Source of the DNA: Planctomycetota bacterium
GTDB lineage: Bacteria; Planctomycetota; B15-G4; SIAN01
Assembly (NCBI GenBank): GCA_031409275.1
Contig: JANNXA010000022.1
Span: 140,058-204,057, forward strand
Direction: 5' to 3'
DNA length: 64,000 nt
Below are positions 20,145 to 61,659 of this stretch, piece by piece (the first letter of the stretch is position 1; the number at the start of each line of letters is the position of its first letter). A program made the translations under genes and the position numbers. A model generated the notes under the pieces. It searched no databases. It was not told the DNA's origin and saw only the letters and a program-made list of their open reading frames with translations.

Positions 20145-20312
20145 CCCGCTACCGCGCAACCGTTTCGTAGCGCGCGCGCCAATCGTTTTCCTGGCCTGCG
20201 CAATCGTCGATCACGAGCACCCAGTCGCGCCATCGCCCGTGTCGATCGATCCCGAGTCGCCGCTCTCCGCCGCATCTCCGTGGCGGTCGCGGCAGCCGGG
20301 AGTGCCGTTCGT

Positions 20313-33166: not shown

Positions 33167-33169
33167 CGG

Positions 33170-34336: not shown

Positions 34337-34340
34337 GCGC

Positions 34341-36576: not shown

Positions 36577-38067
36577 TCACGGCTGCTTGCGCAGTTCCTT
36601 GTCCTTCAGGCCCGGATGGTCGGCGGGGATGCGCGTGGCGCGGAACAGCGCATGCGGCGGTGCGGGCTGTCCCTCACCGGGGTCGGCGTCGCCGAACGGA
36701 TGGAGGTACTCCCACACCATCGTGCCGTCTGCCTTCACCTCGAAGACGCGACCGCTGGCGCCTTCGCAGATCAGCGTGTGGCCGTTGCGCAACCGCTGCG
36801 CGCCGGAGATGAAGTTCGAGAAGAAGTCGCTCTTGGTGGGCGCCGTGTAGCTCCAGACCGGCGCCGCCGGTCCGGCCGCGACGAGTGGCTCGAGCAGGAG
36901 ACCGCCATCCTTCTGGCGCGGCAACTCGAGCTCGATCACGGCCGAGTAGTTGCCGTCGGGTCGACCCGCGCCGTTGTTGTAGATCAACAGGTGTCCGGCG
37001 CCGGGGAAGCCGGACGGGATGAAGCGCGCGTTGTGCTGAAAGAAGAGCGTCTGGTCGCTCTTGCCGCCGGCGCCGTAGTTCTTCGGATTCCCCCAACGCC
37101 ACAGCAGGTCGCCGCCCTTGCCGCTGAGGCCGCCTTCGCTGCCGGCCGCTTCGTCGGAGGTCGTGCTGTGGTCGAGGATCCAGACCTCGCCTAGATGCGG
37201 CGAACTCAGCACGATCTGGTCGTGCTCGACGTCGTAGTGGATCGCGTTGGTATGCAGCCAGTCCGCCTGCAGCTCGCCGGCGGCCGGCTTGGCGTCGATG
37301 TAGCCGAGCTTCTGCAACTCGGCGATGTCGGCGTCGCTGGGCAGCTCTCGGCGCAAGTCGCAGTTGAGGTCGAGTCGCTCGGGATGACTTGCGACATCGC
37401 CGTAGTTGGCCGCATCGGGATCGACATCCTGGATCAGGTGATCCCATGCGTGCCATTGCCAGATGATCTCGGCGCCATCCTTCCCGCTTGGCTCGATCTC
37501 AAAGACGCAGTCGCTCCAGATGCCGTTGAGCCCGACGTGCGCGGGATGGCGACCGGCGGCGATCGCCTCGGAGCGCGTCTTGTACTCCCATGCGATGAAG
37601 AGGATCGTCCCATCGGGGGTGAGCGCGATGTCGTGGTGCTGCAGCGTCTCTTCGCTGGCGAACTTCCAATCCCACACGACGCTGCCGTCCCAATCGAGTT
37701 CCTGCAGCCGACCGCAGGCACCTCCTGCCTTGAAGCGCTGGATGCCCGGCTCCTTGCTGCAGCGCAGCAGATGGCCGTTGTCGAGCAGGTACTCGCTGCC
37801 TGGCATGAAGCCGGTCTTCCACTCGTGCGCCAGGTTCCCTTCGAGATCGACAAGGCGAATCGTCTTGCTGCGCAGCGGCGCGATCAGCGTGTAGCCGGGA
37901 GTGGCCTCCGCCGTGCGCAGCGCGAGTCCGCGCGGGCGACTCGCCGGCGGCTCGCCGGGCGGGGCGCCGCCGGGTGGCGGTGGCGGCGCGCCTTGCGCCA
38001 CGACGACGCTCGCCAAGGTCGAGAGGGTCGCGCAGAGGTGCAGCAGTCGGGTGGCGATCGAAGTCAA
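36577..38067 (-). CDS. arylsulfotransferase (ASST) family beta-propeller protein, secreted
   Basis: TTG 38067 start (GGAG 9 nt upstream) gives the signal peptide MTSIATRLLHLCATLSTLASVVVAQG. Body rich in ASST-like segments (LLDNGHLL, IIWQWHAWDHL, LHTNAIHYD, FFQHNARFIPSG). Confidence 0.75.
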   Translation of the reverse strand: MTSIATRLLHLCATLSTLASVVVAQGAPPPPPGGAPPGEPPASRPRGLALRTAEATPGYTLIAPLRSKTIRLVDLEGNLAHEWKTGFMPGSEYLLDNGHLLRCSKEPGIQRFKAGGACGRLQELDWDGSVVWDWKFASEETLQHHDIALTPDGTILFIAWEYKTRSEAIAAGRHPAHVGLNGIWSDCVFEIEPSGKDGAEIIWQWHAWDHLIQDVDPDAANYGDVASHPERLDLNCDLRRELPSDADIAELQKLGYIDAKPAAGELQADWLHTNAIHYDVEHDQIVLSSPHLGEVWILDHSTTSDEAAGSEGGLSGKGGDLLWRWGNPKNYGAGGKSDQTLFFQHNARFIPSGFPGAGHLLIYNNGAGRPDGNYSAVIELELPRQKDGGLLLEPLVAAGPAAPVWSYTAPTKSDFFSNFISGAQRLRNGHTLICEGASGRVFEVKADGTMVWEYLHPFGDADPGEGQPAPPHALFRATRIPADHPGLKDKELRKQP

Positions 38068-38239
38068 CTTGGAACTCCAGCGAAGGGCACGGTCACTCCG
38101 GCCATCTTGTCGAGGCGCCCACGCGCGGTGAAGGGCGCGCTCGAACCCGACTTCATCCGCGAGTCCCGCTACGATCTCGCGCTCCCGTCGATCTTGGCCT
38201 CCGCGGAGCTTCACGGTGCCGGCACGTTCCACTTGTCGA
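38068..38239. promoter_or_regulatory. divergent promoter region between the arylsulfotransferase gene and the ChaN-like fusion gene
   Basis: An about 170-nt non-coding gap flanked by divergent starts. Confidence 0.35.
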
Positions 38240-40369
38240 ATGGCCCTGCTCCTCGCACTCGGCGCCACCAGTTGCGTCGGATCGAGCGGTCAGCGCCAGA
38301 AGAGGCTCGCGCCCGGCAGCGCGCTCCTCCACCAGGCCTCGCGCCTCTTCGACGGAAAGAGCGGCGTCGAGGTCGGTTGGGAAGCGGCGTTGTCGCGCCT
38401 CGCCGAAGCGGACGTCGTGTTCCTCGGCGAGACGCATCTCGACCGCCTCACCCACGACGCCGAACTCGAGTTCCTGCGCGAACTCACCGAGCGTCGCGAC
38501 GGGCAGACCGCGCTCGCGCTCGAGATGTTCGAGCGCGACGTGCAGCCGTTCCTCGACGAGTACCGGGCCGGCCGCATCGACGAGCGCCTGTTCCTCCAGC
38601 ATTCGCGGCCGTGGGGCAACTACGCCACCGACTACCGGCCGCTGATCGAGTTCTGCAAGGCCGAGCAGCTGCCGATCATCGCGTCGAACCTGCCCGCCGA
38701 GCTGCGCCGCAAGCTCGGCCGCGGTGGTGCTGAAGCGCTCGCGGCGTTGACTCCCGACGAGCGCGCGCTGGTGCCGGAGCCGCTGTTCGAGAACCGTCCG
38801 GACTACTGGAAGCGCGTCGACCACGTCACGCGCGGTCACGCCGCCATGGGGATCGTGCCCGCCGAAAGCCGCCTCTTCGACGGGCAGAACCTCTGGGACA
38901 ACACGATGGGCGACTCGATCGCGCGCGCGCGCGCGGCCGACCCCGAGCGCCAGGTGATCCACGTGAACGGCGGCTTCCACAGCGACTATGGCGACGGCAC
39001 CGTCTGGCAGCTCCTGCAGCGCGCGCCCGCCACCGCCGTCGCGACCGTTCAGATCGTCGCCACCACCGACCTCGCCGACGTCCGCGTCGACGTCGCGACG
39101 CCGCGCGCCGATTTCGTCCTCTTCGTCGAGGCGCGCGCGAAGGCGGCCGAGGACGGTGTGGCCGCGGTGAATGTCGCGCGTGAGCACGGATGGCGCTTGT
39201 CGCGACCGGCCGGCGCGAGCGCCCCGGTCCCGTTGCTGATCTGGCTTTGCGACGACGGTCAGGAGAGCGCCGCCGCCCAGAAGCTGTGGCAGCCGGCGAT
39301 CGGCGACGGCGCCGCGCTGCTCACGCTCGATCCCTCGTTCCCCTACCTCGGCGCCGATGGCAGCAAGCACGGCCGCTGGTTCTTCCCGGGATCTGCCGAC
39401 AGCGGCGGCGGGCTCGCGACGAGCGCGCTCGACCGGATCTTCGAGGTGGTCGCGCGTGAGGACCTCGCGGCCGGTCTCTCGCTCGATCGCACACGCATCG
39501 TCATCGCTGGAGAAGGCGCCGGCGCGACGATGGCGCTGCATGCGGCGCGCTACCTCGGCGACGAAGCTTTCTCGACACTCGCCTTCGAACCGCGCGCGAA
39601 GAGCGAACTCGCCGAGATGATCGCCCCGCTCTCGCTGTCGGCGGGTCGGACCACCCGAAAGGTGGCGATCCACTCCAGCGAGGCGGAGGCGGCGAGCTGG
39701 CGTGAGCTCACCGCGGGCGATGGCGAGTTGCGCCTCACGACGGAAGTCGTCGCGCAGCCCGACGCACCGGCCGCGCGCGATGCCGCGCAGGTTGACGCAG
39801 TGCGCGCGGCGCTCGGCCTCGCCGCCGCTCCCGAGAGCCGCGCGGCCGCGGCCGTGATCGAGCAGGCACCCGTGCATCCGGCCGGCGAACTCGTCGCGCG
39901 GCAGCTCGCGCGCCGCGTGCGCGCCGCGCAGCTCGCGCAGCCCCCTCCCATGGCGATCACCGCCGCCGCGTTCGCCGATGGGCAGCGCCTGCCGCGGTCG
40001 AGCGGCGCGTTCGGTGGCACCACGATCGTGGTCCTGCCGGCCGACGTTGCCGATGGCGAGTGGGCCGCCTGGAAGGCGCTCGAATCACCCGATGTGCTGC
40101 AGGCGAAGAGCCGCTTCCATCGGCTGCGGATCGCGCGCGGAGACGGGGACGAGTCGCCGCGCGCGGTGATCGAGAAACTGCGCGCCGAGAATCCGCAGCG
40201 GCGCGACTTCCTGCTGGTGCCGGCCGAATTCTGCGTCGACGACGCCGCGCTCGAGCGGCTGACTGCGGCCATCGGCGCGCTCGCCGACGAACTCCATCTC
40301 GAGCTGCTGCCGGGGCTCGGCGCACTGCTGCCGGTCGGTCCGCCGGCTCCGGCTCCCGCGCCGCATTGA
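38240..40369 (+). CDS. multidomain lipoprotein: ChaN/Tiki-like (DUF399) haem-binding-type domain + esterase-like alpha/beta-hydrolase-type domain + C-terminal domain
   Basis: Lipobox MALLLALGATSC. ChaN-like core ADVVFLGETHLDRLTHDAELEFLRELTE...ALEMFERDVQPFLDEY. The middle segment LLIWLCDDGQ...RIVIAGEGAGATMALHAA resembles the phospholipase/carboxylesterase fold but has Gly where the nucleophile Ser is expected. Confidence 0.65.
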   Translation: MALLLALGATSCVGSSGQRQKRLAPGSALLHQASRLFDGKSGVEVGWEAALSRLAEADVVFLGETHLDRLTHDAELEFLRELTERRDGQTALALEMFERDVQPFLDEYRAGRIDERLFLQHSRPWGNYATDYRPLIEFCKAEQLPIIASNLPAELRRKLGRGGAEALAALTPDERALVPEPLFENRPDYWKRVDHVTRGHAAMGIVPAESRLFDGQNLWDNTMGDSIARARAADPERQVIHVNGGFHSDYGDGTVWQLLQRAPATAVATVQIVATTDLADVRVDVATPRADFVLFVEARAKAAEDGVAAVNVAREHGWRLSRPAGASAPVPLLIWLCDDGQESAAAQKLWQPAIGDGAALLTLDPSFPYLGADGSKHGRWFFPGSADSGGGLATSALDRIFEVVAREDLAAGLSLDRTRIVIAGEGAGATMALHAARYLGDEAFSTLAFEPRAKSELAEMIAPLSLSAGRTTRKVAIHSSEAEAASWRELTAGDGELRLTTEVVAQPDAPAARDAAQVDAVRAALGLAAAPESRAAAAVIEQAPVHPAGELVARQLARRVRAAQLAQPPPMAITAAAFADGQRLPRSSGAFGGTTIVVLPADVADGEWAAWKALESPDVLQAKSRFHRLRIARGDGDESPRAVIEKLRAENPQRRDFLLVPAEFCVDDAALERLTAAIGALADELHLELLPGLGALLPVGPPAPAPAPH

Positions 40370-40384
40370 GTCGCGCGCGCGACG

Positions 40385-41692
40385 TCAGGCCAACAGCTCG
40401 CGGACGATCGCGCCCTCGGGATCGACCAGCGTCGCCGGACGCCGCGACGTCGCCTGGAAGCGCTTCGTTCCGTCGATCCGCAGCAGATGGGCCAAGGTGG
40501 CGAACAGGTCTGGAACGGTGACCGGCCGCGCGACGATGGACTCTCCACGATCATCCGTGCTGCCCACCACGGTGCCCGCCTTCACTCCGGCACCGGCGAG
40601 CAGCGCGCAGTAGTTGTGTGGCCAGTGGTCGCGGCCGCGGCGCGCGCTGATGGCCGGCGTCCGGCCGAACTCGCCCATGCAGACCACCAGGGTCTCCGAC
40701 AACAGCCCGCGCTGTTCGAGGTCGTCAAGCAACGTCGAGAGCGCCGGATCGAGCTCGCGGCAGAGCGCCTCCGTCTTCGGGAAGTTGTCGATGTGAGTGT
40801 CCCACCCGTCGAAGTGGATCTCGACGGCGCTGACCCCCTCCTCGAGCAGGCGGCGCGCGAGCAGAGCGCCCTGACCAACCGTCGAGGGGCCGTACGCCTC
40901 GCGCAAGCGATCGGGCTCGGCGTCGAGGTTGAAGGCGCGACTGCGAACGCTCTCCATCAACCGGCGGGCACGCCGCTGCTGCTCGCGGTTGCTGTTCACC
41001 TCGACCTCGGCGCCGCGGCGCGCGTAGTCGGCGTCGAGCAGTTCACGCAGCGAATCGCGCCGATCGGTGCGAATCGCGTCGAGCGGGCGCGCCGCGGCGA
41101 GGTTCGCGACCGGGCTGCCGGGGCGGGCCACGAGGAACGGGGCGTGCGCTACTCCGAGGTAACCAGCCGAGCCGGGCGCGCCGTTGATCTGCACGAAGCT
41201 CGGCAGCTCGGCGGCGGGGTCGCCTAGTTCGTGTGAGACGACCGAGCCGAAGGTCGGAAAGGCGACGCTGGGGTTGGGCGTGTAGCCGGTGTGCAGCAGC
41301 AGCCGCGCGCGGGCGTGGCTGCCCTCCTTGGAGTGGAGGCTGCGGATCACCGCCAGTCGATCCGCACGTTCGCGCAGCTGCGGCAGGTGCTCGCTGAAGC
41401 TCCAGCCGGCGCGATCGGTGGGAAGCGCGCGAAACGGCCCGCCATTCACGGTGCCGGGCTTGGGGTCGAACGTGTCGAGCTGGCTCGGGCCGCCTTCCAG
41501 CCAGATCAGGATCAAGCGCCGCGGCGTGGGCGCGTCGCCGAGCGCTGCTTCTTGAGCGCACGCGTGGCGCTGCAGCAATCCGAGCAGTCCGGAGCCGATC
41601 GATGCGGCACCGATTCCGCCGGCGAGCTGCGCCAGCAGCGCACGCCGAGTCAGCTGTCCGGTCCAACGCGCGGATGGCAGCGAGGAGCTCAT
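40385..41692 (-). CDS. DUF1501 domain protein (sulfatase/AlkP-superfamily fold, Tat signal)
   Basis: Start MSSSLPSARWTGQLTRRALLAQLAGGIGAASIG (twin-Arg-like signal). Characteristic DUF1501 segments (FDTFDPKPG, HSKEGSHARARLLLHTGY, MGEFGRTP, RDHWPH). ATGA overlap with the DUF1553 gene stop. Confidence 0.85.
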   Translation of the reverse strand: MSSSLPSARWTGQLTRRALLAQLAGGIGAASIGSGLLGLLQRHACAQEAALGDAPTPRRLILIWLEGGPSQLDTFDPKPGTVNGGPFRALPTDRAGWSFSEHLPQLRERADRLAVIRSLHSKEGSHARARLLLHTGYTPNPSVAFPTFGSVVSHELGDPAAELPSFVQINGAPGSAGYLGVAHAPFLVARPGSPVANLAAARPLDAIRTDRRDSLRELLDADYARRGAEVEVNSNREQQRRARRLMESVRSRAFNLDAEPDRLREAYGPSTVGQGALLARRLLEEGVSAVEIHFDGWDTHIDNFPKTEALCRELDPALSTLLDDLEQRGLLSETLVVCMGEFGRTPAISARRGRDHWPHNYCALLAGAGVKAGTVVGSTDDRGESIVARPVTVPDLFATLAHLLRIDGTKRFQATSRRPATLVDPEGAIVRELLA

Positions 41693-43554
41693 GGATTGGT
41701 GTGGAACTCCGCGCTGTTCACCAGGGCCCAGTAGAGATCGTCGGCTGAGGCGCGCGGATGGGCGGCATCGAGCGCCGCCACCAACGCGCGCGCTTCCTCG
41801 GGCTGCGGAGGTCGCGACAACGTGGCGAGGAACCACGGCGTGATCCGTTCGACCTCGCTGTGGCGCGCATCGAACAGCGCGTGCAGGGAGGCATCGTCAC
41901 GCAAGGCGGCAGGAATGACCGCGGCGTCGCCGTTGCGCAGCAGCAACGCCAGCGGGATGTTGACCTCCAGCGTGCGATCGTTGGCGTCGGCGCGGCCGGG
42001 CGAGCAGCGCTCGAGTTCGCGCAGCAGCTGGGCGCGCTGCTCGTCGAGGTGCTCCGCGGCGATGTCCGCGTTCCCGAGCCGAAGCACGGTGTTGGCGAGC
42101 TGCTCTGGCGTGAAGCTGCGGCGCGGATGGGCGGCGAACCAACGTTCGCTGCGTGCGCGCGCCTCGGAGTCGGCGCCAGACGCCGCACCGAGCGCGTAGG
42201 CGCGCGTGCGTGCCACCACGCGATAGAGCAGGCGAACGTCGCCGCCTTGTTCTGCGAGCGCCGCCGCGAGCGCAGCGTGCAGCTCCGGCAGGATTCGATC
42301 GGAGCCATCCGCGAGGTCATCGACCGGATCGACGAGTCCGTGGCCGAGCAGGAGCGAGACGATGCGATTGGACTGCGCCAACGTGAACCAGCGGTTGCCT
42401 GGCGCGATGATCCATTCGGCGAGCGCCGCGCGACGCGACTGTCCGCGCTGCGCTTCGTACGGGGCGTCATCGAGATGCGCCGCGACGCCAAACTTCTCGC
42501 GCCGTTCGAGGTAGCGATCGAGCAGGTCGCGTGCGTCGCCAGGGAGTCGTCCGCGCAGCGACTCGAGCGCTTCACCGTCGGCGAGGAAGGCGAGGATCGG
42601 CCGCTCGCCCCCGACGCTCTCGCGCAGCAAGGCACGCAATTGCGCGACTGCCGCCAACTCGGCGGGCGTCCGGCGCTGCGCGGGGCCCTCGGCGCCCGCG
42701 CGCATCGACGGCTTGTCCATCGAGGAGGCGCCCGCCTCGAGTTCCCTCAGTCGATCGGCGAGGTCCCATTCGGGCGAACGGTCGATGACGCGGAAGCCCG
42801 GGCCGCCGATCTCGGAGAGCAGGCCGTGGTCCCCGCGCATCTCGACGAAGAACCCTACGAAACGGTTGAACTGCTCCCGCGTCCAGTGGTCGTAGGGATG
42901 GTCGTGGCACTGGGCGCACTGGATCTGGAGGCCGAGGAACGCGCGTGCAGAGACGCCAGCAAGCGTCTCGATCGAATCGCGAAAGCTGATCGGGAACGCG
43001 AAGGCCCCGGGCGTGCGGGCCGCGCCGGACGCGGCGATCAGCTCGGTCGTGAGCTGTGGGAAGGTGATGCCCTCGCGGAATCGCTCGGCCAGCCATGGCC
43101 TCAGCCAGCGCGTGGTCTTCTCGGCGTCCTTGCCGGCCTCGCCCACCAGCAGTTCGTTCCATTGGAACGAGAGCTCATCGGCGAATCGCGGGTCGGTGAG
43201 TTGCGCCTCGATCTCTTCGGCGCGTCGCGTCGCCGCCGGACGCGCCAGGAACCGCGCGATCTCCGCCGGTGTCGGCGCGCAGCCGCGCAAGTCCAGGCTC
43301 AGGCGACGCAGCCACGTCGAGTCGTCGAGCGGCGTCGCGGCGACGAGCCCCTGCTCCTCCCACGCCGCGGCCACCATCGCGTCGAACCGCGTCACGAGCG
43401 CGTCGACCGCGGTCGACGGCGGCGCCGCGTCGGGCGCAAGCGATGGCGACGCCGTCGCGACGGTCAACGCGAGGGACACCGCGGCGGCAAGGGCAGAAAG
43501 ACGACTAGGCCAGGCACGCAACCGAACCACTCCTGCAACGACGAGGCGCTGCAA
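41689..43554 (-). CDS. DUF1549/DUF1553 (PSCyt2/PSD1) domain protein
   Basis: Hallmarks RRLSLDLRGCAPTPAEIARF and the cytochrome-like GLQIQCAQCHDHPYDHWTREQF. Universally paired with DUF1501, as here. Confidence 0.85.
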   Translation of the reverse strand: MQRLVVAGVVRLRAWPSRLSALAAAVSLALTVATASPSLAPDAAPPSTAVDALVTRFDAMVAAAWEEQGLVAATPLDDSTWLRRLSLDLRGCAPTPAEIARFLARPAATRRAEEIEAQLTDPRFADELSFQWNELLVGEAGKDAEKTTRWLRPWLAERFREGITFPQLTTELIAASGAARTPGAFAFPISFRDSIETLAGVSARAFLGLQIQCAQCHDHPYDHWTREQFNRFVGFFVEMRGDHGLLSEIGGPGFRVIDRSPEWDLADRLRELEAGASSMDKPSMRAGAEGPAQRRTPAELAAVAQLRALLRESVGGERPILAFLADGEALESLRGRLPGDARDLLDRYLERREKFGVAAHLDDAPYEAQRGQSRRAALAEWIIAPGNRWFTLAQSNRIVSLLLGHGLVDPVDDLADGSDRILPELHAALAAALAEQGGDVRLLYRVVARTRAYALGAASGADSEARARSERWFAAHPRRSFTPEQLANTVLRLGNADIAAEHLDEQRAQLLRELERCSPGRADANDRTLEVNIPLALLLRNGDAAVIPAALRDDASLHALFDARHSEVERITPWFLATLSRPPQPEEARALVAALDAAHPRASADDLYWALVNSAEFHTNP

Positions 43555-43612
43555 TAGACGCTCCCGCCGCCGCCGTCAACCTTCGCGCGACGGCGCTGCT
43601 AGGATCCGCGGA

Positions 43613-45049
43613 ATGAGACTCCCTTCGGCGCCTCCGTCGTGGCTCGCGGCTGCCGCCATCGCATTCCACCAGGAAGCGATACCGGTGCCGCCTCCTGCTG
43701 CACCGCAGCGACTCGTCGTCGTGACCCTCGATACGGTCCGCGTCGATCGCCTCGGCTGCTACGGCTACTTCCGCGACACGACTCCGAACCTCGACCGCTT
43801 CGCGACGGATGCGCTGCGCTTCACACGCTGCCAGGTGCCGATCGCGCAGACGACTCCGAGCCACACCTCGTTGTTCACCGGCGTCGGCCCCTTCGAGCAT
43901 GGCGTCACTTCGAACCACGCGCGGCGCTCCAACGAGGAACCGTCCGAGATCGGGCTCGAGACTTCGGCGACGTTGCGCACGCTCGCCGAGTCGTTCCAGC
44001 AGCGCGGCTTCGCGACGGGGGGCTTCGTCACGGCGACGCCGGTCAAGCGTTTCACCGGCCTGGCAAAAGGCTTCGACGAATGGAGCGAGCCGGAGCGCGG
44101 TCGCCGCATCGGACACGAGGCGATCCGCGACGCGTTGGCCTTCCTCGACCGTCATAAAGAGGAGTCGATGTTCGTCTGGGTCCATCTCTACGACGCGCAT
44201 GAACCCTACACCGCGCCGACCCCGCCAAAGCAGTTCCTGTCGCGCTACTCGAGCGAGCCGCGCCTCCTCGATTGGCTCGCCGCGCGCAACTTCCCGAGCC
44301 GATCGGCTGATCTCGAGGCGCACGGTCGCGATGTGATCTCGACACAGAACGACTACGACGGCGCGCTGCGCTTCATGGACCAGCAACTCGGTGTGCTACT
44401 CACCCGGCTCGAAACCGAGCCGCTCTACAGCTCCACCACCGTCGTGTTGGTCGCCGACCATGGAACGGCACTTGGCCAGCACGATCACGTCGGTCACGGG
44501 ATCTGCTGGGAAGAGCAGCTGCAGATCCCGCTTCTCGTTCGAGTTCCCGGACTCGCGCCAGGCGTGGTCGACGAGCCGCTCTCGACGCTCGATCTCTGGC
44601 CCACTCTGTCGGCGCTGGTGCCGGGACTCCTCGACGCGGCATGGCTGCCGCAGTGCCGCGGTGCCGACGTGCTGTCACCCGACCACACCCCGGCGCCGCG
44701 GTTTGCGATTTCCGGTCGTGACTCGAGCCTCGCTTCCGTGAGAGCGGGGCGCTTCAAGCTGATCCGCGACGAGCGCCGCGCGACGCAGCTCTTCGATCTC
44801 GACGCCGATCCCAACGAAACCAAGGATGTCGCCGTCGACCACCCCGACGTCGTGCAGCGGCTCAGCGCGCTGGTCGCGGACGAGGTGGCGCGCCAGAAGC
44901 GTGCACACGCGCTGCACCGCAGCCCGTCGGGCGAGTCGGGCAGCGTGGATCCGAAGCTCCTCGAGGAGCTGCGGGAGCTCGGCTACGTAGGCGCCGACGC
45001 GGGCAGTGCGGACGAAGAGGGCGGCGGCGATCGGCGCCGTCCACGCTGA
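43613..45049 (+). CDS. sulfatase-like alkaline-phosphatase-superfamily enzyme with Thr/His in place of the fGly-motif Cys/Arg
   Basis: Start MRLPSAPPSW. The sulfatase N-terminus VVVTLDTVRVDRLGCYGY is followed by RFTRCQVPIAQTTPSHTSLFTG where arylsulfatases have LCTPSRAALLTG. Downstream motifs WVHLYDAHEPY and VVLVADHGTALGQHDHVGHG. Confidence 0.85.
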   Translation: MRLPSAPPSWLAAAAIAFHQEAIPVPPPAAPQRLVVVTLDTVRVDRLGCYGYFRDTTPNLDRFATDALRFTRCQVPIAQTTPSHTSLFTGVGPFEHGVTSNHARRSNEEPSEIGLETSATLRTLAESFQQRGFATGGFVTATPVKRFTGLAKGFDEWSEPERGRRIGHEAIRDALAFLDRHKEESMFVWVHLYDAHEPYTAPTPPKQFLSRYSSEPRLLDWLAARNFPSRSADLEAHGRDVISTQNDYDGALRFMDQQLGVLLTRLETEPLYSSTTVVLVADHGTALGQHDHVGHGICWEEQLQIPLLVRVPGLAPGVVDEPLSTLDLWPTLSALVPGLLDAAWLPQCRGADVLSPDHTPAPRFAISGRDSSLASVRAGRFKLIRDERRATQLFDLDADPNETKDVAVDHPDVVQRLSALVADEVARQKRAHALHRSPSGESGSVDPKLLEELRELGYVGADAGSADEEGGGDRRRPR

Positions 45050-45058
45050 GCCGCAGTT

Positions 45059-47245
45059 TCAGCGGCCGTCGCGGCGAGGGACGCGCCGCTCGTACTCCGG
45101 CAGTTCGAGCAGCTTGGGATCGAGTGCCTTGAGCGCGACGTCGAGCAACTGCGCCGACTCCGCTGGCCCTCGCTGCTGGAGACGCGCCAGCACCATCTTC
45201 GCGGTGTCGACGGGAGAGAGGTTCAATCCGTCGAGCGTTGCAGCGGATGCCGGCGCACGCGTGAAGCAGGCGATCAGCTCAGTCACGGCGGTTGCGTCGT
45301 CGTCGCGCTCGAAGGCGATGCGCGCGCGGCCCGCCATGGCGAGCGCGATGAAATGGTCCGCGGCGCCACGCTCGTCCGGCAGCCGCGCGATCGCCGCTTC
45401 GTACCACTCGATCGCCTGCGTGTAGGAGGCGAGCGCGGCCTCGGCGTCGCCGGCGCGGCGCTCGAACTCGGCGGCCACCATCGCGCCATAACCCGCGAAC
45501 GAATTCAGCGCCGCCGAAGGCTCTTCGCGCGCGAGCCATTCGCGGTAGGTCGCCACGATTCCGGCCGGACCGCGCTCGTCGAGCGCGCGCGCCCGCAGCC
45601 GTGCGTGGAGCAGATCGGAATCGGGGAAACGGGCCAGTCCTTGGCGGAGGAAGTTCTGCGCCGGCTGCTTGGCGCCGAGCCACTGCAGCACGTCGTAGTG
45701 GCCCGCGATGAGATCGTCCCGGCCCAGCGGATGGCGCGCCATCGCGGAGTAGGCCGCATTCAGCTCGGCGAGCCAGGCGGGCGGCCATGGCGTCTTCTGA
45801 CGCAGCGCCTCGCCCAACGCCTGTTCCCGCGAACGCGCGAACAGCTCGAGCACCGCGAGCGCTTCCGGACGGCTCGGATCGTCGGGAGCGCCCGCGACGA
45901 TCGCGGCGACCGCGTGCTGACGTGCGTCGGTTTCATCTCCGAGTTCGCGTGCGGTGACGGCGAGCGTCGTCTCGACCCGATGACCGTGGGCGCCGAGCTC
46001 GGCGGCTCGACGCACCGTGCGCTGCGCGTCGGCGAGCACGAGCTTCGCGAAGCGATCGTCCTCGGTTCGCGTCGCGAGGTCGACCATCGCTTCGCCGAGC
46101 TCCAGAAGCGCCGTGGCGTCGCGCCCGACGAGGAGCGCGTCCTGATCGGTGAGCCGCTGCTGCCAGAGCTGCGCGCGCGCCGCGACCGCGGCGGGATCGG
46201 GGGGCAGTGTCCACGCCGCGAGGTCGATCAACGTGGTCGCGGTCGCGAGCCCCTGATGGACGACGGAGAGCGTGCGCGCGCGGGACGAGCTGGCGCCCAA
46301 CCGATCGAGCGCCCCCACCAGCGCCGTGCGCTGTGCCGCGTCAATGGGGCCCGACAACGCCTCGGCGATCAACGGCACCGCTTCAGGCGCGGTGCTGCGG
46401 GCGAGCCCGTCACGAGCCTGCGACGCCAGCGACTGGTCGAACGAATGGAGCGCGAGCCGCAGCAATTCGACCGGCGCTGCGGCCGGATCGGCGAGCGCCG
46501 CCGCGAGCAGCGCCTGGCGCGCCTTCGCGTCGCCCTTCTGCCACGAGCTCTCCACGGCCACACGATCGGCCTGATCGCGGCTGGTCACGCGCTCGACGAG
46601 CGACCGGTCGCCGCGCACGATCGGTCGCGGCGGCGGACGCTTGACGATCGTGGTCGCGATCTGGTCGAGCACCGACTGCACGTCCCACGCGTAGAAGACG
46701 TCGTGGAGCTCCGTGCCGTCGACCTCGACCGCGACATGACGCGGCGCGACGCGCTGCCCTTCGAAGAACTTCTCGAACAGGAACGGCTCGATCGCGATGT
46801 GCTCGCCGCAAGTCACGCTGCCGAAGCGCGGACAGAGGATGCGCTGGCCGGACTCGTCGTAGTCGCGCGGCGTGTGGCGGTAGGTGGAGGCGATGACGCA
46901 GACGTAGGGCTCGTAGAGCTTCGCCGCGTCGGGAATTCGGTAGCGGATGCCGGCGTAGTGCTCGCTGGCGATCTCTCCGTCCATGTTGACGCAGATCAAG
47001 ATCGGCTTGCCGCTCTCCTTGGCGACCGCCAACGCGTCCTCCCAGGTGCGCTGGAACGCGATCAGGCACGGCCGCTTCCAATCTTCCGCCGACGGGGCGG
47101 GCCAGGTCTGCTCGCGGCTCTGGCCATTGGCCGGCGGCGGCGTCGCCTGCGCGCGGAGCGGAGAGCCGAGGGCCAGCGACAGCGCGAACGCGAGCGCGAT
47201 CACAGCCGTGCGACGGAACGAGCGGACAGCGGGCGATGCAGCCAT
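45059..47245 (-). CDS. secreted protein: N-terminal thioredoxin-like-fold-type domain plus long helical (TPR/HEAT-like) repeat region
   Basis: Start MAASPAVRSFRRTAVIALAFALSLALGSPLRAQA (signal peptide). N-domain KPILICVNMDGEIASEHYAGIRY with several Cys. The about 450-aa C-terminal part is Ala/Leu-rich and helical. The ORF-track N-terminal extension is artefact. Confidence 0.6.
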   Translation of the reverse strand: MAASPAVRSFRRTAVIALAFALSLALGSPLRAQATPPPANGQSREQTWPAPSAEDWKRPCLIAFQRTWEDALAVAKESGKPILICVNMDGEIASEHYAGIRYRIPDAAKLYEPYVCVIASTYRHTPRDYDESGQRILCPRFGSVTCGEHIAIEPFLFEKFFEGQRVAPRHVAVEVDGTELHDVFYAWDVQSVLDQIATTIVKRPPPRPIVRGDRSLVERVTSRDQADRVAVESSWQKGDAKARQALLAAALADPAAAPVELLRLALHSFDQSLASQARDGLARSTAPEAVPLIAEALSGPIDAAQRTALVGALDRLGASSSRARTLSVVHQGLATATTLIDLAAWTLPPDPAAVAARAQLWQQRLTDQDALLVGRDATALLELGEAMVDLATRTEDDRFAKLVLADAQRTVRRAAELGAHGHRVETTLAVTARELGDETDARQHAVAAIVAGAPDDPSRPEALAVLELFARSREQALGEALRQKTPWPPAWLAELNAAYSAMARHPLGRDDLIAGHYDVLQWLGAKQPAQNFLRQGLARFPDSDLLHARLRARALDERGPAGIVATYREWLAREEPSAALNSFAGYGAMVAAEFERRAGDAEAALASYTQAIEWYEAAIARLPDERGAADHFIALAMAGRARIAFERDDDATAVTELIACFTRAPASAATLDGLNLSPVDTAKMVLARLQQRGPAESAQLLDVALKALDPKLLELPEYERRVPRRDGR

Positions 47246-47373
47246 GGCGAACTCTTCGGGGTGTTCGTGGCGGTGGAGCGAAGCACGGCAGAACCATAGC
47301 GCGGCGAGCTCATCGGTCGGGTGCGAGCGGGGGCCGCTATCCTGCCCCGCTTCCCGTTTCGGAGCCTGTTGCC
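47246..47373. promoter_or_regulatory. divergent promoter region upstream of the MoxR-Bat operon
   Basis: An about 128-nt gap between a minus-strand ATG (47245) and the MoxR GTG (47374). Contains the GGAG RBS of MoxR. Confidence 0.35.
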
Positions 47374-48363
47374 GTGAGCGCCACCGCCCCACTCGTCGAG
47401 CGCCTCGCACCACTGCGCGTCGTCTTCGACGACGTCCTGCGCGAGGTCGGCGGCGTCATCGTCGGTCAGCAATCGCTGCTCCAGAAGATGGTCATCGGTC
47501 TGCTCGCCGATGGCCATGTCCTGCTCGAGGGGGTCCCCGGCCTCGCCAAGTCGCTCGCCGTGCAGACGCTCGCGCAGGCGCTCGGCGGCACCTTCCGGCG
47601 CATCCAGTTCACCCCCGACCTCTTGCCCGCCGACCTGCTCGGCACGCAGATCTTCCAGCCGAAGAGCGGCGAGTGGCTGGTGCGCGAGGGGCCGATCTTC
47701 GGCCACTTCGTGCTGGCCGACGAAATCAACCGAGCGCCGGCCAAGGTGCAGTCGGCGCTGCTCGAAGCGATGCAGGAACGGCAGGTGACGCTCGCCGGTG
47801 AGACGCGTCCGTTGCCGGAACCGTTCCTGGTGCTCGCCACGCAGAACCCGGTCGAGCATGAGGGCACCTACTCGCTGCCCGAGGCGCAAGTCGATCGCTT
47901 CATGCTGAAGCTGGTGCTCGACTACCCGAGCAAGGACGAAGAGGTCGCCATCGTTGATCGCATGGCGCGCACCGGCAAGAAGCCCGCGGCGCGTGCCGTG
48001 ACGAATCCGCAGGCCGTCCTCGAGGCGCGTGCGCTGCTGGATGAGATCCACCTCGAACCGCGCCTGGCGCGCTACCTCGTCGACCTGGTCGGCGCCACGC
48101 GCCGGCCCGACACCGTGGGCCTCGCCGCGCTCGCCAAGCTCGTTGCCTATGGCGCTTCGCCGCGCGCGACGGTGGCGCTGGCGCAAGCTTCGCGAGCGCA
48201 CGCGTTCCTCGCCGGCCGCGACCACGTGACGCCGCACGACGTGAAGTCGCTCGCGCTCGACGTCCTGCGCCATCGGATCAGCCTTCACTTCGAGGCGGCG
48301 GCGGAAGGGGTGACTGCCGAGCAGGTCGTCGTCGCCGTCCTCGCCCGCGTCCCCGTCCCGTAG
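47374..48363 (+). CDS. MoxR-family AAA+ ATPase
   Basis: GTG 47374 with GGAG 9 nt upstream. Walker A LLEGVPGLAKS, Walker B HFVLADEINRAP, sensor FLVLATQNPVE, and C-terminal MoxR lid. Confidence 0.9.
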   Translation: MSATAPLVERLAPLRVVFDDVLREVGGVIVGQQSLLQKMVIGLLADGHVLLEGVPGLAKSLAVQTLAQALGGTFRRIQFTPDLLPADLLGTQIFQPKSGEWLVREGPIFGHFVLADEINRAPAKVQSALLEAMQERQVTLAGETRPLPEPFLVLATQNPVEHEGTYSLPEAQVDRFMLKLVLDYPSKDEEVAIVDRMARTGKKPAARAVTNPQAVLEARALLDEIHLEPRLARYLVDLVGATRRPDTVGLAALAKLVAYGASPRATVALAQASRAHAFLAGRDHVTPHDVKSLALDVLRHRISLHFEAAAEGVTAEQVVVAVLARVPVP

Positions 48364-48371
48364 TGCACCTG

Positions 48372-49295
48372 ATGGCGATCCAGAGCGCCCCGCCGGATGA
48401 CGCCGAGCTCGCGCGGCTGTTGCGCGAGGTGCAGCGCATCGAAGCGGAAAGCGGTCGCGTGGTGGCGAGCCTGATGTCGGGCGCGTGGGCGTCGCGCTTC
48501 CGTGGCCAAGGGCTCGAGTTCGAGGAGGTGCGCGAGTACATCGCCGGAGATGATCCGCGCGCGGTCGACTGGAACGTGACGGCGCGCTACGGACGGCCGT
48601 TCGTGAAGCAGTTCGTCGACGAGCGCGAGCGGACGCTCCTCTTCCTGCTCGACCGATCGGCCTCGATGGAAGGCAGCACGTGGGCCGGGCGGCCGCGCGT
48701 GGCAGCGGCTCGCGTCGTCGCCAGTCTCGCGCTCGCGGCCTGCGCCAACCACGATCGAAGCGGATTGCTGGCGTTTGGCGCTCGGGTCGATGCCGTCGTG
48801 CGCCCGCAAAGTGGTCGCGCGGCCGCGCTGCGGCTGGTGCGTGACACGCTGGCCTTGCCCGCCGAGCGTGGCGCCGCGGCACTGCCGTCGGCGCTCGCGC
48901 TCGCCACGGCACGCTTCCGGCCGGGCGCGATCGTCGTGCTCTTGTCGGATTTCGCGGACGAGGGCTGGCGCGATGCCGCCGCGCGCTGCTCGCAGCGCCA
49001 CGACGTGGTCGCCGTGCGTCTCGCCGCCGATGAGTTGCCGCCGGCCGCCGCGGGTCTCGTCGAGCTTTGCGATCCCGAGTCCGGCCGGCGTGAAGTCGTC
49101 GACTGCGCGAGTGCGCGAGTGCGAGCCGCGGCGCAGTCGCGCTCGCTGGCCGCCCGCGAGCAGTGGCACGCGTTGGCGCGGCAGGCGGGCGTCGATCGAC
49201 TCGAACTGCCGGTCGCGCCAGGCACGGCGCACGCGCTCTCGGCACGGCTGTACGGCTTCTTCATGGGGCGCTCGGTGCGGACCTCTCGGCGATGA
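48372..49295 (+). CDS. DUF58 domain protein (vWA-like, MoxR partner)
   Basis: FEEVREYIAGDDPRAVDWNVTARYGRPFVKQF and LLFLLDRSASM are typical of DUF58. Follows MoxR directly. Confidence 0.8.
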   Translation: MAIQSAPPDDAELARLLREVQRIEAESGRVVASLMSGAWASRFRGQGLEFEEVREYIAGDDPRAVDWNVTARYGRPFVKQFVDERERTLLFLLDRSASMEGSTWAGRPRVAAARVVASLALAACANHDRSGLLAFGARVDAVVRPQSGRAAALRLVRDTLALPAERGAAALPSALALATARFRPGAIVVLLSDFADEGWRDAAARCSQRHDVVAVRLAADELPPAAAGLVELCDPESGRREVVDCASARVRAAAQSRSLAAREQWHALARQAGVDRLELPVAPGTAHALSARLYGFFMGRSVRTSRR

Positions 49296-50200
49296 GCCCC
49301 GCGGCCCTGCTACTCGCTCTCGCGGTGCTGGCGCGCGTGCAGGGCGAGGTCGCGATCGTGGTCGAAGTGCCGGCGCAACCCGTTGCGCCGGGCGCACCGT
49401 TCGAGATCAGCGTGCATCGCGACTGGGATGCGGCGCTCGTCCCGGCTCCGTTCGAGGAAGGCGCGCTCACCGGCAACGGGCTGGTGGTGCAGCTCCAGGA
49501 GGTGATCCGCGGCGGCAGCTCGCTGCGCGTCGAGGAGCACCGTCGCTATGTCGCGCAGGCGCATTCGCGGCGTCAGATCGCGCTCGATTCGGTGGTCGCG
49601 CGCGCCACGAGCAGCGATGGCCGAGTCTCATTCGAGGCGACGGCGCTGCCGCGAGTGATCGCTCTTGCCCCGACGCTGGCGGCGGACGACGCGTCGCCGC
49701 TCGAGTGGCCGGCCGATTTCGCGACTCCGGCCGCGCGCGCGCGACGCGACGACTTCCCGAGCCTCGGCTCCTGGATCGTCGCAGCGCTCGCACTCCTCGC
49801 GACGCTCGTGGCCTGGTTGGCAGCGCGCGGCCGCGGTGCGGCAGCGCCGATGGCGGCGGCGCCGATGGCGCGGGGTCGACTCGCGGCCCTGGCGCTCGCG
49901 GAAGAGCCGACCCGCGGCGGCGCCGCTCGCCGCGAACTCTGCGCCGCAATCGCCGACGTGGTTCGCGCCACCCTCGAAGAGGAGCGAGCGATCCCCGCCT
50001 CGAGGCGGACGCGCGAAGAGGTGATCGACCTCGCACGATCGGCCGCGCTGCCGTCCGCAGCGCAGCGCGTCCTCTCGGAGCTGCTCGAACGCGCCGACGC
50101 CGCCAAGTTCAAGGCCGCGGCGCCGAGCGAGCCGGAGCGCCTCGCACTGATCGAACTGGCGCAGCGCTTCCTCGGGCTGCTGCCCGCGGAGCGTCCATGA
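49292..50200 (+). CDS. Bat-operon membrane protein (DUF4381-like), signal peptide plus internal TM
   Basis: Start MSPAALLLALAVLARVQG, ATGA overlap with the DUF58 stop. Internal TM WIVAALALLATLVAWLAA. Occupies the position held by DUF4381 in MoxR-DUF58-Bat operons. Confidence 0.55.
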   Translation: MSPAALLLALAVLARVQGEVAIVVEVPAQPVAPGAPFEISVHRDWDAALVPAPFEEGALTGNGLVVQLQEVIRGGSSLRVEEHRRYVAQAHSRRQIALDSVVARATSSDGRVSFEATALPRVIALAPTLAADDASPLEWPADFATPAARARRDDFPSLGSWIVAALALLATLVAWLAARGRGAAAPMAAAPMARGRLAALALAEEPTRGGAARRELCAAIADVVRATLEEERAIPASRRTREEVIDLARSAALPSAAQRVLSELLERADAAKFKAAAPSEPERLALIELAQRFLGLLPAERP

Positions 50201-51174
50201 GCGGCCTCTTCCCGCCGTGGAGCGAGCTGCAGTTCGCGACGCCGCACGCCGCGTGGCTGCTGCTGCTCGTGGCCGCGCTCTCCTTGCAAGGCGTGGTGAG
50301 CCGCCCCACCGCGCTGCCGCGCGCAGCTCCCGCTCTCGTGAATGCGATCGCCTTGCCGGGCTCGTGGCGTCGACGTTGCGCCGCGCTGCTGCCATCGCTG
50401 AGGTGCGCGGCCTGGCTCCTGCTGGTCCTCGCCGCGATGCGGCCGGTGCGGCGCGTGGCGCTGCCGCAGTCGATCGAAGGGATCGACATCGTGGTGGCGC
50501 TCGATCTCTCGTCGTCGATGGCCGCAGAAGACCTGGCGCCGGGTGAAACGCGCCTGGCAGTGGCGAAGCGGGCACTCGACGACTTTCTGCGGCGACGACC
50601 GGAGGATCGCATCGCTTTGCTCTCGTTCGCGCGCTGGCCTGACCTGCTGGTGCCGTTGACCCGCGACCATGCAGCGCTGCGCGCGAAGCTGGAGGCGTTG
50701 ACGCTCGTCGAGCCGGATGGAGCGGAGGACGCGACCGGAATCGGGACCGCGCTCGCGCGCGCGCTGCAGTTGCTCGAGAAATCGGCGGCGCGCTCGAAGG
50801 TGATCGTGCTGCTGACCGACGGCGTCGAGAACGTGGCGACGGCGCAGACCCCCGACGAGATCGCTCCGCTGCATGCGGCGCAGCGAGCGGCGCAGTCGGG
50901 CGTGCGCATCGACCCGATCGTCGTCGGCCGTGGTGACACCGATACGCGCGAGGTCGAGGCGGTCGCTTCGCGCACCGGCGGGACCTGCTTCACCGCGCGC
51001 GATGCCGCGGCGGTCGCAGCCGTCTGCGCCCAGATCGATGGACTCGAGCGCACGCGGCTCGAAGCTCCGCGCTGGCACGTCGAGGAGTGGTTCGCTCCGT
51101 TCGTGGCGGTCGCATTGGCGCTGCTGCTGGCCGCTCGCGCGATGGCGGCGTCGGGTCTCGAGGTGTTGCGATGA
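50197..51174 (+). CDS. BatA-like vWA-domain membrane protein
   Basis: N-terminal TMs, then a vWA with MIDAS IVVALDLSSSM...LLTDGVEN, and a C-terminal TM. ATGA overlaps on both sides. Confidence 0.8.
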   Translation: MSGLFPPWSELQFATPHAAWLLLLVAALSLQGVVSRPTALPRAAPALVNAIALPGSWRRRCAALLPSLRCAAWLLLVLAAMRPVRRVALPQSIEGIDIVVALDLSSSMAAEDLAPGETRLAVAKRALDDFLRRRPEDRIALLSFARWPDLLVPLTRDHAALRAKLEALTLVEPDGAEDATGIGTALARALQLLEKSAARSKVIVLLTDGVENVATAQTPDEIAPLHAAQRAAQSGVRIDPIVVGRGDTDTREVEAVASRTGGTCFTARDAAAVAAVCAQIDGLERTRLEAPRWHVEEWFAPFVAVALALLLAARAMAASGLEVLR

Positions 51175-52901
51175 GCGCGAGCGAGCTGCTGCTTTCGCCC
51201 CAATCGTGGCCACTGCCGCTGGCGGTCGGAGTGGTCGGCTGGCTGCTCGAAGTGGCGGAGCGCCGGCGCGAAGCGCGTCGGTGCGCGGCGCTCGGCGAAG
51301 CGCCTCCCACGCGACGTCGCGGCCTCGCCACGCTGGCGATGGTGCTGGCGGCGTCGGCGTTCCTCGAACCCGCCCGCGGTCAGGGCGAAGCTCCCCTATC
51401 GGCGCGTCCCGACCTCGTCGTCTGCCTCGATGTTTCGCGATCGATGCTGGCGACGGACGCCTCCCCGAGCCGGCTCGCGGCGGCCCAGGCCGCATTGGTG
51501 AAGATGGCGACAGCGGGGCAAGGCGAGCGCCTGGCGCTGGTCCTTTTCGCGGGGGTGGCGCAGCTGGCCGTACCGCTCACCGACGATGCCGCTGCATTCG
51601 CCGAGCAGGTGGAGGTGGCGAGCCCCGATCGGGTCGCGCGCGGCGGCAGCGACCTCGCGGCCGCGATCGACGTCGCGCTCGTGGCGCTGCGCGCCGCGGA
51701 GTCGCGCGGCGGCGCGATCGTGCTGCTCACCGATGGCGAGGATCTCTCGCGCGCGGTCGCCGTCGCCGACGCCGCGCAACGCTGTCGCGAACGCGGAGTG
51801 GTCCTCCATGCGGTCGGTTTTGGTTCGCCTGAAGGGCGCAAGATCGCGCTGCCCACTGCGCAAGGAGAGCGCTTCCTCGTTGACCGCGAGGGACGCGAAG
51901 TGATCTCGCGGCTCGATGAGCCGGGGCTGGCGTGGCTCGCGGAGGCGACCGGCGGGAGCTACGTCGCGGCGAGGGAAACGGACGCGCCGCTCGACGCCAT
52001 CGTCTCGAAGATCCGCCGTTCGTCGCCACCGCGGTTCGACGCCTCGGCGGCTGCGGTGCGGCCGCTGTTCCAGTGGTTGCTGGTCGCCGCGCTGCTGCTC
52101 GGGACGATCGACGAAGCGGCGAAGAGGATGCGCCGCAAGCGGGCCGTGGCCGTTGGCCGAGCGGGATCCTATCTGGTCGCGCTGATCGCGCTGGTGACGA
52201 GTTCGATGGTGGCATGCGCGCCGCAGCAACGCGTGACCTCGCTGCCCGGTGACGATCTCGCGACCGCGGCCAGCGAGTGGCGTGCGGCGCTCGCGGCCGA
52301 GGTGGCGGGAGATGCCGAGGCCGCCGCGTCTCACGCGGAACTCGCCGCGATGCGTGGCGCAGCGGTCTACCGCGACGACGCGCGTTTCCTGATCGCCGCG
52401 CTCGACTTCCGGCGCGGCGAAGCGCTTTCGAGACGGGCGTTGGCGCCTCATCACGATCTCGAAGCGGCCCGCGCCGGCCGCGAGGCGTTGGTCGCCGCGC
52501 TCGCCGACTTCGCCGCGTTGGCCGCCACCGATTCCGAGGTGGCGCGCCGCAACGTCGAGCGTTGCCTGCTGCGCATCGAGGCGCTCGACCGCCTGCTGGT
52601 GCCGCCGGTCGAACCGCCGCTGGTCGACGAGACGCGTCGCCTCGCTGCGCCGGTGGCTCTGGACTCCACCACTGCCCTCGATCCGACCGCACCGCCCGAC
52701 GAGCCGAGCGCCGAGCTCGCCGCCGATGAGATCGTCGATCCGGTCGAGCCGCCATCGCCATTGCCGCCGCAACTCGCCGAGCTCGATCCGGTCGCGTTGG
52801 CGCAGTTGTTCGAGCGGCTGGCGGAGAAGGAGGCGGCGAAGCGCGCCGCGCGCTCGGAACAGCGCGCACGCCAGAACGCCGACGTGGAGCGCGACTGGTG
52901 A
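51171..52901 (+). CDS. BatB-like vWA-domain protein fused to a BatC-like TPR/helical C-terminal region
   Basis: vWA MIDAS LVVCLDVSRSM...VLLTDGEDL, a second TM, then an Ala-rich helical and Pro/Glu-rich tail. Confidence 0.8.
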   Translation: MSASELLLSPQSWPLPLAVGVVGWLLEVAERRREARRCAALGEAPPTRRRGLATLAMVLAASAFLEPARGQGEAPLSARPDLVVCLDVSRSMLATDASPSRLAAAQAALVKMATAGQGERLALVLFAGVAQLAVPLTDDAAAFAEQVEVASPDRVARGGSDLAAAIDVALVALRAAESRGGAIVLLTDGEDLSRAVAVADAAQRCRERGVVLHAVGFGSPEGRKIALPTAQGERFLVDREGREVISRLDEPGLAWLAEATGGSYVAARETDAPLDAIVSKIRRSSPPRFDASAAAVRPLFQWLLVAALLLGTIDEAAKRMRRKRAVAVGRAGSYLVALIALVTSSMVACAPQQRVTSLPGDDLATAASEWRAALAAEVAGDAEAAASHAELAAMRGAAVYRDDARFLIAALDFRRGEALSRRALAPHHDLEAARAGREALVAALADFAALAATDSEVARRNVERCLLRIEALDRLLVPPVEPPLVDETRRLAAPVALDSTTALDPTAPPDEPSAELAADEIVDPVEPPSPLPPQLAELDPVALAQLFERLAEKEAAKRAARSEQRARQNADVERDW

Positions 52902-61634: not shown

Positions 61635-61659
61635 CGAGAGCGGTCGCAAGCGCGGCGGC

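Follow-up and report, generated by a model that had tools for sequence, protein, structure and literature searches.

A putatively secreted planctomycete protein with a sulfatase-type scaffold and a threonine nucleophile motif: a proposed phosphoester hydrolase

The gene at 43613-45049 (+) of a 64,000-nucleotide stretch of DNA from a Planctomycetota bacterium (contig JANNXA010000022.1; the whole stretch is called the window below) raises the question of what a protein with the scaffold of a sulfatase may do when threonine and histidine stand at the places of the formylglycine residue and the conserved arginine. It encodes a 478-residue enzyme of the alkaline-phosphatase superfamily, predicted to be secreted, with the nucleophile motif T-x-P-x-H. 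An initial annotation, made from the letters of the window, had described it as a sulfatase-family protein with two replaced motif residues, and had proposed Thr-based phosphoryl transfer or, alternatively, an inactive binding protein. Our analysis suggests that the product is probably a phosphoester hydrolase, and that the window gene is typical of a very large, conserved family whose members are mostly labelled sulfatases.

The open reading frame (ORF) has a stop-free translation, its GC content at third codon positions (0.82) matches that of true genes in the window, which has 70% GC overall, and a protein identical to its product exists in public collections (P0001). The product matched PF00884 (Sulfatase) with an E-value of 1.6e-38 over residues 34-336 and, more weakly, PF01663 (Phosphodiest) with an E-value of 1.5e-14 over residues 34-292, at 54.8 bits compared to a gathering score of 23. 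It has the sulfatase alpha/beta fold, with an N-terminal catalytic and a C-terminal subdomain. Upstream of the catalytic domain there is just a 22-residue signal-like N-terminus, and a membrane domain is absent. Judging from the sequence and the homologue alignment, residues 1-22 (MRLPSAPPSWLAAAAIAFHQEA; 43613-43678, +) are probably a Sec signal peptide; the region has low confidence (pLDDT) in the predicted model, and many of the more distant homologues carry lipoprotein-type L-x-x-C signals in its place.

The nucleophile segment and the predicted metal sites

The nucleophile segment, T80-T-P-S-H84-TSLF-T89-G90-VG-P93-FE-H96-G97-VTS-N101, lies at 43850-43915 (+). The full motif reads Q79-T80-T81-P82-S83-H84-T-S-L-F-T89-G90, with the codons ACG ACT CCG AGC CAC for T80-H84 at 43850-43864. 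When phmmer aligns the protein with solved sulfatases, the formylglycine residue is matched by T80 and the motif Arg by H84 (for example 7stt, 'vA-S-P-T-R-asimtg'), in agreement with the initial annotation, which had placed TTPSH at the site of CTPSR and had noted that no convertible residue and no conserved Arg were left there. Because T-x-P-x-H stands at the aligned place of C/S-x-P-x-R, formylglycine cannot form, and on its sequence the 478-residue protein cannot be a formylglycine sulfatase.

A search of the PDB with the 31-residue nucleophile segment alone returned nine matches, all of them to ENPP1, to the Xanthomonas (Xac) NPP or to PafA, and none to a sulfatase. The alignment to NPP is gap-free (TTPSHTSLFTGVGPFEHGVTSN on the side of the window protein), covering residues 255-277 of ENPP1 and 51-75 of Xac NPP. 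ENPP1 Thr256, which is the catalytic nucleophile of that enzyme (PMC8808174), aligns with T80, and N101 aligns with the Asn that lies 21 residues downstream of the Thr. The best reading of T80 is that of a Thr nucleophile of the phosphoryl-transfer type, as the initial annotation had supposed, and N101 is predicted to contact a phosphoryl oxygen.

The remaining active-site candidates fall into three blocks. The first, D40-T41-x-R43-x-D45 (43730-43747, +; homologue alignment), contains the predicted first ligand of the metal site on the nucleophile side; D40 aligns with the first Asp of the sulfatase DD/DQ motif in phmmer, and with the Glu of EptA 'GETSRAE' in the family profile hidden Markov model (HMM). 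The second, H191-L-Y-D194-A-H196-E-P198-Y (44183-44209, +), contains H196 and probably D194 as predicted ligands of a second metal. H196 aligns with the conserved sulfatase His of 7oz8 'RPHSPY' (phmmer), and by inspection the surrounding H-x4-H-x-P-Y resembles EptA 'HTIGSHGPTY', which holds the equivalent of H395. In the third block, D282-H283-G-TALGQ-H290-DHVG-H295 (44456-44497, +), D282 and H283 are predicted metal ligands and H295 occupies the place of a sulfate-binding Lys, aligning in phmmer with the distal one of sulfatase 4upi. The family HMM aligned D282-H283...H295 to 'SDHGESLGENGIYLHG' (SDHG...LHG) of E. coli K-12 EptA, and the family consensus DHGeglgqhgelgHg to EptA DHGESLGENGIYLHG. 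The EptA His aligned with H295 corresponds to H478 of MCR-1, and D282/H283 correspond to D465/H466, with the same 13-residue spacing. MCR-1 binds Zn1 through D465, H466, E246 and Thr285; its H478 either pairs with H395 at Zn2 or touches the phospho-Thr (PMC5216409). The His that replaces the Lys aligns with the second-zinc His of EptA/MCR-1, a further point in line with a Thr nucleophile of the phosphoryl-transfer type.

Of the two zincs in ENPP enzymes, one is coordinated by two Asp, a His and the Thr, the other by an Asp and two His (PMC8808174). The residues conserved here, D40/T80/D282/H283 and D194/H196/H295, form a set of equal composition, agreeing with that site in type and in number (seven), with D194 matched to NPP by composition rather than place for place. 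We infer that the Asp and His residues of this set bind metal, with D194 probably on the second one. Among the sulfate-binding basic residues of S1 sulfatases, only the His equivalent to H196 is retained, and the sulfatase G-K-x-H signature has no counterpart, the corresponding region reading GFATGGFVTATP.

Extent of the family and its relation to characterised enzymes

A word-indexed search yielded 542 homologues, and the best 120 of them (28-77% identity) were aligned with MAFFT. The regular expression T-x-P-x-H...TG matched in 101 of these 120, and the C/S...R motif in none. T80, H84, D40, T41, R43 and D45 were each present in 119 of 119 aligned homologues; H196, D282 and H295 in 120 of 120; H283 and H191 in 119; N101 in 117; H96 in 116; H290 in 114; and D194 in 113, with Glu in 4 more. 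The near-invariance of T80, H84, D40, D282, H283, H196 and H295 is what selection on an active site would be expected to produce. All the motifs of the clade (D-T-x-R-x-D, T-x-P-x-H...HG-x3-N, H-x2-D-x-H-x-P, D-H-G-x5-H-x4-H-G and a C-terminal L-x-x-L-G-Y) occur in the window protein, and they are conserved in 112-120 of the 120 homologues. The last of them, L453-R-E-L456-G457-Y458 (44969-44986, +), was found in 112-116 of the 120, and a helix is predicted in this region, at 447-455, with moderate confidence. Fusions to TPR repeats are frequent in the family, and in these proteins L-x-x-L-G-Y lies where the TPR domain adjoins. Of the 120 homologues, 107 have R165 and a further 6 have Lys at its place. 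It lies 85 residues past the nucleophile, as R164 does from T79 in PafA (numbering from the title of PDB entry 5too), which we treat as only a numerical coincidence pending a three-dimensional comparison.

The family extends far beyond these homologues. An exhaustive phmmer search of 1.84 billion cluster representatives returned 10,004 at E <= 1e-30 (about 10,000 clusters at 50% identity), and T-x-P-x-H was present in 129 of 138 further cluster representatives, mostly followed by HG-x3-N. The consistency of the Thr/His pair among orthologues, which the initial annotation had proposed to check, is therefore high, and its description of a sulfatase with two locally replaced residues was mistaken, since T-x-P-x-H is the hallmark of the whole family. 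At least 550 species-representative genomes carry a member, most of them from Acidobacteriota, Planctomycetota, Deltaproteobacteria/Myxococcota and Aminicenantes; one belongs to a cultured organism, Sorangium cellulosum So ce26 (locus L084). Database names of members include 'sulfatase', 'arylsulfatase A-like enzyme', 'choline-sulfatase' and 'sulfatase-like hydrolase/transferase'; looking up the clusters themselves added no name that was informative. Some polypeptides contain two T-x-P-x-H catalytic domains (among P0122, P0150, P0190, P0193, loci L009, L037 and L059, and others). Member-bearing contigs were also assigned to metagenome-assembled genomes (MAGs) named Klebsiella pneumoniae, Bifidobacterium breve and Bifidobacteriaceae (L015, L076, L086); given the distribution of the family, these attributions seem to reflect contamination during binning, or wrong labels.

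The window protein has a sulfatase-type scaffold, which extends to the C-terminal subdomain. With the whole protein, phmmer against the PDB retrieved sulfatases at E 4e-23, and the first 75 residues of the domain matched arylsulfatase A best, at E 3e-11 compared to 1e-3 for NPP, so that the N-terminal resemblance to type I sulfatases claimed by the initial annotation stands. No close relative with a solved structure was found in the PDB searches, and none of the NCBIfam models reached its cut-off: the two sulfatase equivalogs (arylsulfatase and choline-sulfatase) scored 100 and 97 bits where 481 and 433 were required, and the transferase models 13-28 bits against cut-offs of 404-1250. Compared to S1 sulfatases and phosphonate monoester hydrolases (PMHs), the window protein has T80 and no oxidisable Cys or Ser, H84 for the motif Arg, H295 for the sulfate-binding Lys, T41 for the second Asp of the DD motif, and no G-K-x-H. 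With NPP/ENPP and PafA it shares the gap-free segment T-x-P-x-H-x4-T-G-x2-P-x2-H-G-x3-N, it matches their Pfam family (PF01663) above threshold, and its conserved Asp/His set has the composition of the ENPP two-zinc site (PMC8808174), but the NPP-type fold is not its closest structural relative. With EptA/MCR-1 it shares the Thr nucleophile and a D-H...H block whose last His serves at the phospho-Thr or second zinc in those enzymes (PMC5216409); unlike them, and unlike LtaS, OpgB and PbgA/YejM, it is predicted to be soluble and secreted and lacks a membrane domain. Its first metal ligand would be Asp where EptA-type transferases have Glu, and it carries the sulfatase C-terminal subdomain, unlike the transferases of PF00884.

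Among the Thr-type members of PF00884, LtaS, EptA/MCR-1, OpgB and PbgA have been characterised. That PF00884 holds many Thr-bearing non-sulfatases is established: Barbeyron et al. found Thr in 30 of the 59 seed sequences of the Pfam family, and described a T-x-N-x-E group (PMC5066984), which is LtaS-like and differs from the T-x-P-x-H of the window protein. What sets the window protein apart is that it unites three traits: a two-subdomain scaffold of the soluble sulfatase type, a T-x-P-x-H...N segment as in NPP/PafA, and a His pair as in EptA. The window protein lacks the defining features of S1 sulfatases, of the NPP fold family and of the membrane transferases, and fits only the T-x-P-x-H clade. 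A catalytic core of the NPP/PafA and EptA kind on the two-subdomain scaffold of a type I sulfatase appears to be the best explanation of these likenesses.

Proposed function and competing explanations

We propose, with a probability of about 0.6, that the protein is a secreted or periplasmic metal-dependent phosphoester hydrolase, either a phosphodiesterase or a phosphomonoesterase, in which Thr80 acts as nucleophile. One metal, liganded by D40, D282 and H283, would carry Thr80, another would be coordinated by H196, H295 and probably D194, and N101 would contact a non-bridging phosphoryl oxygen. The metal-activated Thr80 could then attack phosphorus, with departure of the leaving group and formation of a phospho-Thr intermediate, which water would hydrolyse in a second step. 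Hydrolysis would seem likelier than transfer, and phosphate esters likelier substrates than sulfate esters; the signal peptide without any membrane domain favours a hydrolase over a lipid-linked transferase. Several features of genomic context fit the breakdown of phosphoesters. Two other paralogues occur in tandem with each other, with an Exo_endo_phos gene and with a DUF885 gene, and among more distant loci bearing family members, PF01663 proteins were present in about 6 and TonB-dependent receptors with a CarboxypepD_reg domain in 29 of 80. In addition, 32 of 87 distant loci hold two to four copies of the family, often as tandem arrays (for example L009, L037 and L059). Such surroundings speak slightly for hydrolysis in nutrient scavenging and point to no particular substrate.

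Several observations weigh against the proposed phosphoester hydrolase. The overall fold and sequence are much nearer to sulfatases than to NPPs, and the PDB matches of the nucleophile segment were individually weak (E 0.07-1.5); since the query is short, the weight lies on the exclusivity and the register of these matches. The D194-x-H196 spacing differs from the D-x3-H of NPP and alkaline phosphatase, and the equivalence of D194 was seen in no alignment, the family HMM having aligned with two PF01663 proteins of related loci weakly and partially, around DHG. Phosphate-regulon genes were not recurrent among the neighbours, and TonB-dependent receptors are so common in Acidobacteriota that their occurrence in 29 of 80 loci may be partly due to chance. 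Literature searches of open-access papers and bioRxiv found neither biochemical data for any member nor a paper on the T-x-P-x-H clade.

A less likely reading is that of a phospho-group transferase similar to LtaS, EptA/MCR-1 or OpgB, which would pass a phospho-alcohol group (phosphoethanolamine, phosphoglycerol or the like) via Thr80 to an acceptor in the cell envelope. The Thr nucleophile and the EptA-type His pair are shared with such enzymes. To our knowledge, however, all transferases of this kind reach their lipid donor by means of an N-terminal multi-span membrane domain, which the window protein does not have. Its scores with the NCBIfam transferase models are far under the cut-offs, it has a sulfatase-type C-terminal subdomain and begins with D-x-x-R-x-D rather than the Glu of the transferases, and the tandem arrays of paralogues look more like families of scavenging hydrolases. 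It is also conceivable, but unlikely, that the enzyme hydrolyses sulfate or sulfonate esters with a Thr nucleophile and no formylglycine. Its scaffold is nearest to S1 sulfatases, an arylsulfotransferase gene lies 5 kb away, and a PafA of Alteromonas, a Thr/two-zinc enzyme, is reported to have measurable sulfatase activity (PMC12594817). Nevertheless, the sulfate-binding residues are gone (Arg to H84, Lys to H295), GFATGGFVTATP stands where G-K-x-H would be expected, the arylsulfotransferase neighbours only the syntenic orthologue besides the window gene, and no dedicated sulfatase is known among Thr-type enzymes of the sulfatase fold (Barbeyron et al. 2016, PMC5066984).

PbgA/YejM was long regarded as a catalytically dead, enzyme-derived protein, and the window protein could be imagined as a binding or scaffolding protein of that sort. 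We consider this alternative, which the initial annotation had also raised, very unlikely, as the seven potential metal and catalytic residues are kept in 113-120 of the 120 homologues and N101 in 117, which would be unexpected without catalysis. An error of sequencing or assembly, or a strain polymorphism, in an ordinary Cys-type sulfatase can be dismissed. A change from Cys (TGY) to Thr (ACG) takes two base changes, and the same T and H recur in 119 of 119 homologues from independent assemblies and in 129 of 138 further representatives. Neither of the findings that the initial annotation had named as contradicting it, a polymorphism or an aligned Cys or Ser with an intact Arg, was encountered. 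Overall, our results partly support its interpretation, which was right in its main thrust, that the protein is not a sulfatase and would act through Thr-based phosphoryl transfer.

If members of the clade do hydrolyse phosphoesters, the consequences concern the family rather than this single gene, whose own practical import is modest. It is possible, although we suggest it only tentatively, that the T-x-P-x-H clade is a large unrecognised class of environmental phosphoesterases, and perhaps also a living intermediate between two-metal Thr phosphodiesterases and formylglycine sulfatases/PMHs; as such an intermediate, it may join a sulfatase scaffold with an NPP core of ancestral type. The clade, abundant in soil Acidobacteriota, Planctomycetota and Myxococcota, would then escape gene surveys based on phoA, phoD, phoX and pafA, because its members are annotated as sulfatases. 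Thousands of planctomycete, acidobacterial and myxobacterial 'sulfatase' genes would be mislabelled, the use of sulfated polysaccharides inferred from PF00884 counts would be too high, and a considerable share of the capacity of soils and sediments to turn over organic phosphorus would be missed. For enzymologists, the clade could serve as a natural hybrid in which to study shifts between phosphate and sulfate chemistry in the alkaline-phosphatase superfamily.

Genomic neighbourhood

The window gene stands alone, divergent from a pair consisting of a PSCyt2/PSD1 (DUF1549/DUF1553) gene and a DUF1501 gene (40385-43554, -; Pfam), and convergent with a 784-residue ORF. The DUF1501 gene itself occupies 40385-41836 (-; Pfam), and a sequence search of solved structures found no relative of its product. 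Literature searches on the DUF1501/DUF1553 pair gave general remarks alone: the DUF1501-PSCyt module is a conserved unit to which no function has been assigned (PMC3542564), and genes of PF00884 are often located near PSCyt genes (PMC5615132). The divergent trio of DUF1501, PSCyt2/PSD1 and T-x-P-x-H enzyme was also found beside P0003, a syntenic orthologue with 76% identity and the same contig order; beside P0006, from two metagenomes with otherwise different neighbours; and beside P0009, a paralogue in the genome of P0003 (L001 4672-9425, L002 4528-9392 and L004 3509-8431). The trio thus occurs in three independent contexts, all within a close planctomycete clade, and was present in 0 of 80 more distant loci, for which reason a functional link across the family was rejected.

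The neighbours to which the initial annotation had appealed do exist, namely the DUF1501 gene, an arylsulfotransferase (36577-38268, -; Pfam) and an 896-residue fusion of an N-terminal protein kinase domain with a C-terminal FGE-sulfatase domain (4293-6983, -; Pfam), whose kinase domain is a partial Pfam match covering profile positions 1-149 of 263. The argument built on them is mostly weak: the association with DUF1501/PSCyt2 recurs in the three close-clade contexts, but it does not extend to the distant loci, the arylsulfotransferase was found again only beside the syntenic orthologue, and the kinase-FGE fusion lies 37 kb away. The arylsulfotransferase and a ChaN-like haem-binding protein (38216-40369) adjoin a MacB-type exporter cluster (31973-36505, -) that comprises an HlyD-family adaptor and two MacB_PCD/FtsX permeases, with a 236-residue ORF between the permeases (34341-35051). 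On the other side of the enzyme gene, a Bat-like operon (47236-54451, +) encodes a MoxR-type AAA ATPase, a DUF58 protein, two VWA-domain proteins and a BatD-like protein. The arylsulfotransferase, ChaN, exporter and Bat-like genes are common only to the window locus and its syntenic orthologue, and a link to the arylsulfotransferase, ChaN and Bat-operon neighbours, which were not found in the 80 distant loci, was likewise rejected. The convergent 784-residue ORF (45059-47413, -) has no Pfam match; an unannotated 682-residue gene occupies the same position beside the orthologue (L001 9485-11533, -).

A promoter and terminator scan around the enzyme gene found nothing. When the divergent intergenic regions were aligned, the sole match was a short TAGGATC shared by two or three loci. 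In the window it lies at about 43596-43602, some 10 nt upstream of the ATG, and in L002 it precedes the start codon by a similar distance; L004 has a weaker TAGCTTC. The match may be chance, or it may mark a promoter or a ribosome-binding element. Elsewhere, the window encodes three FG-GAP repeat proteins (20280-21674, +; 56504-58486, -; 59391-61649, -), the latter two of which also contain an ASPIC/UnbV domain, and a similar FG-GAP-type protein neighbours a family member in L049.

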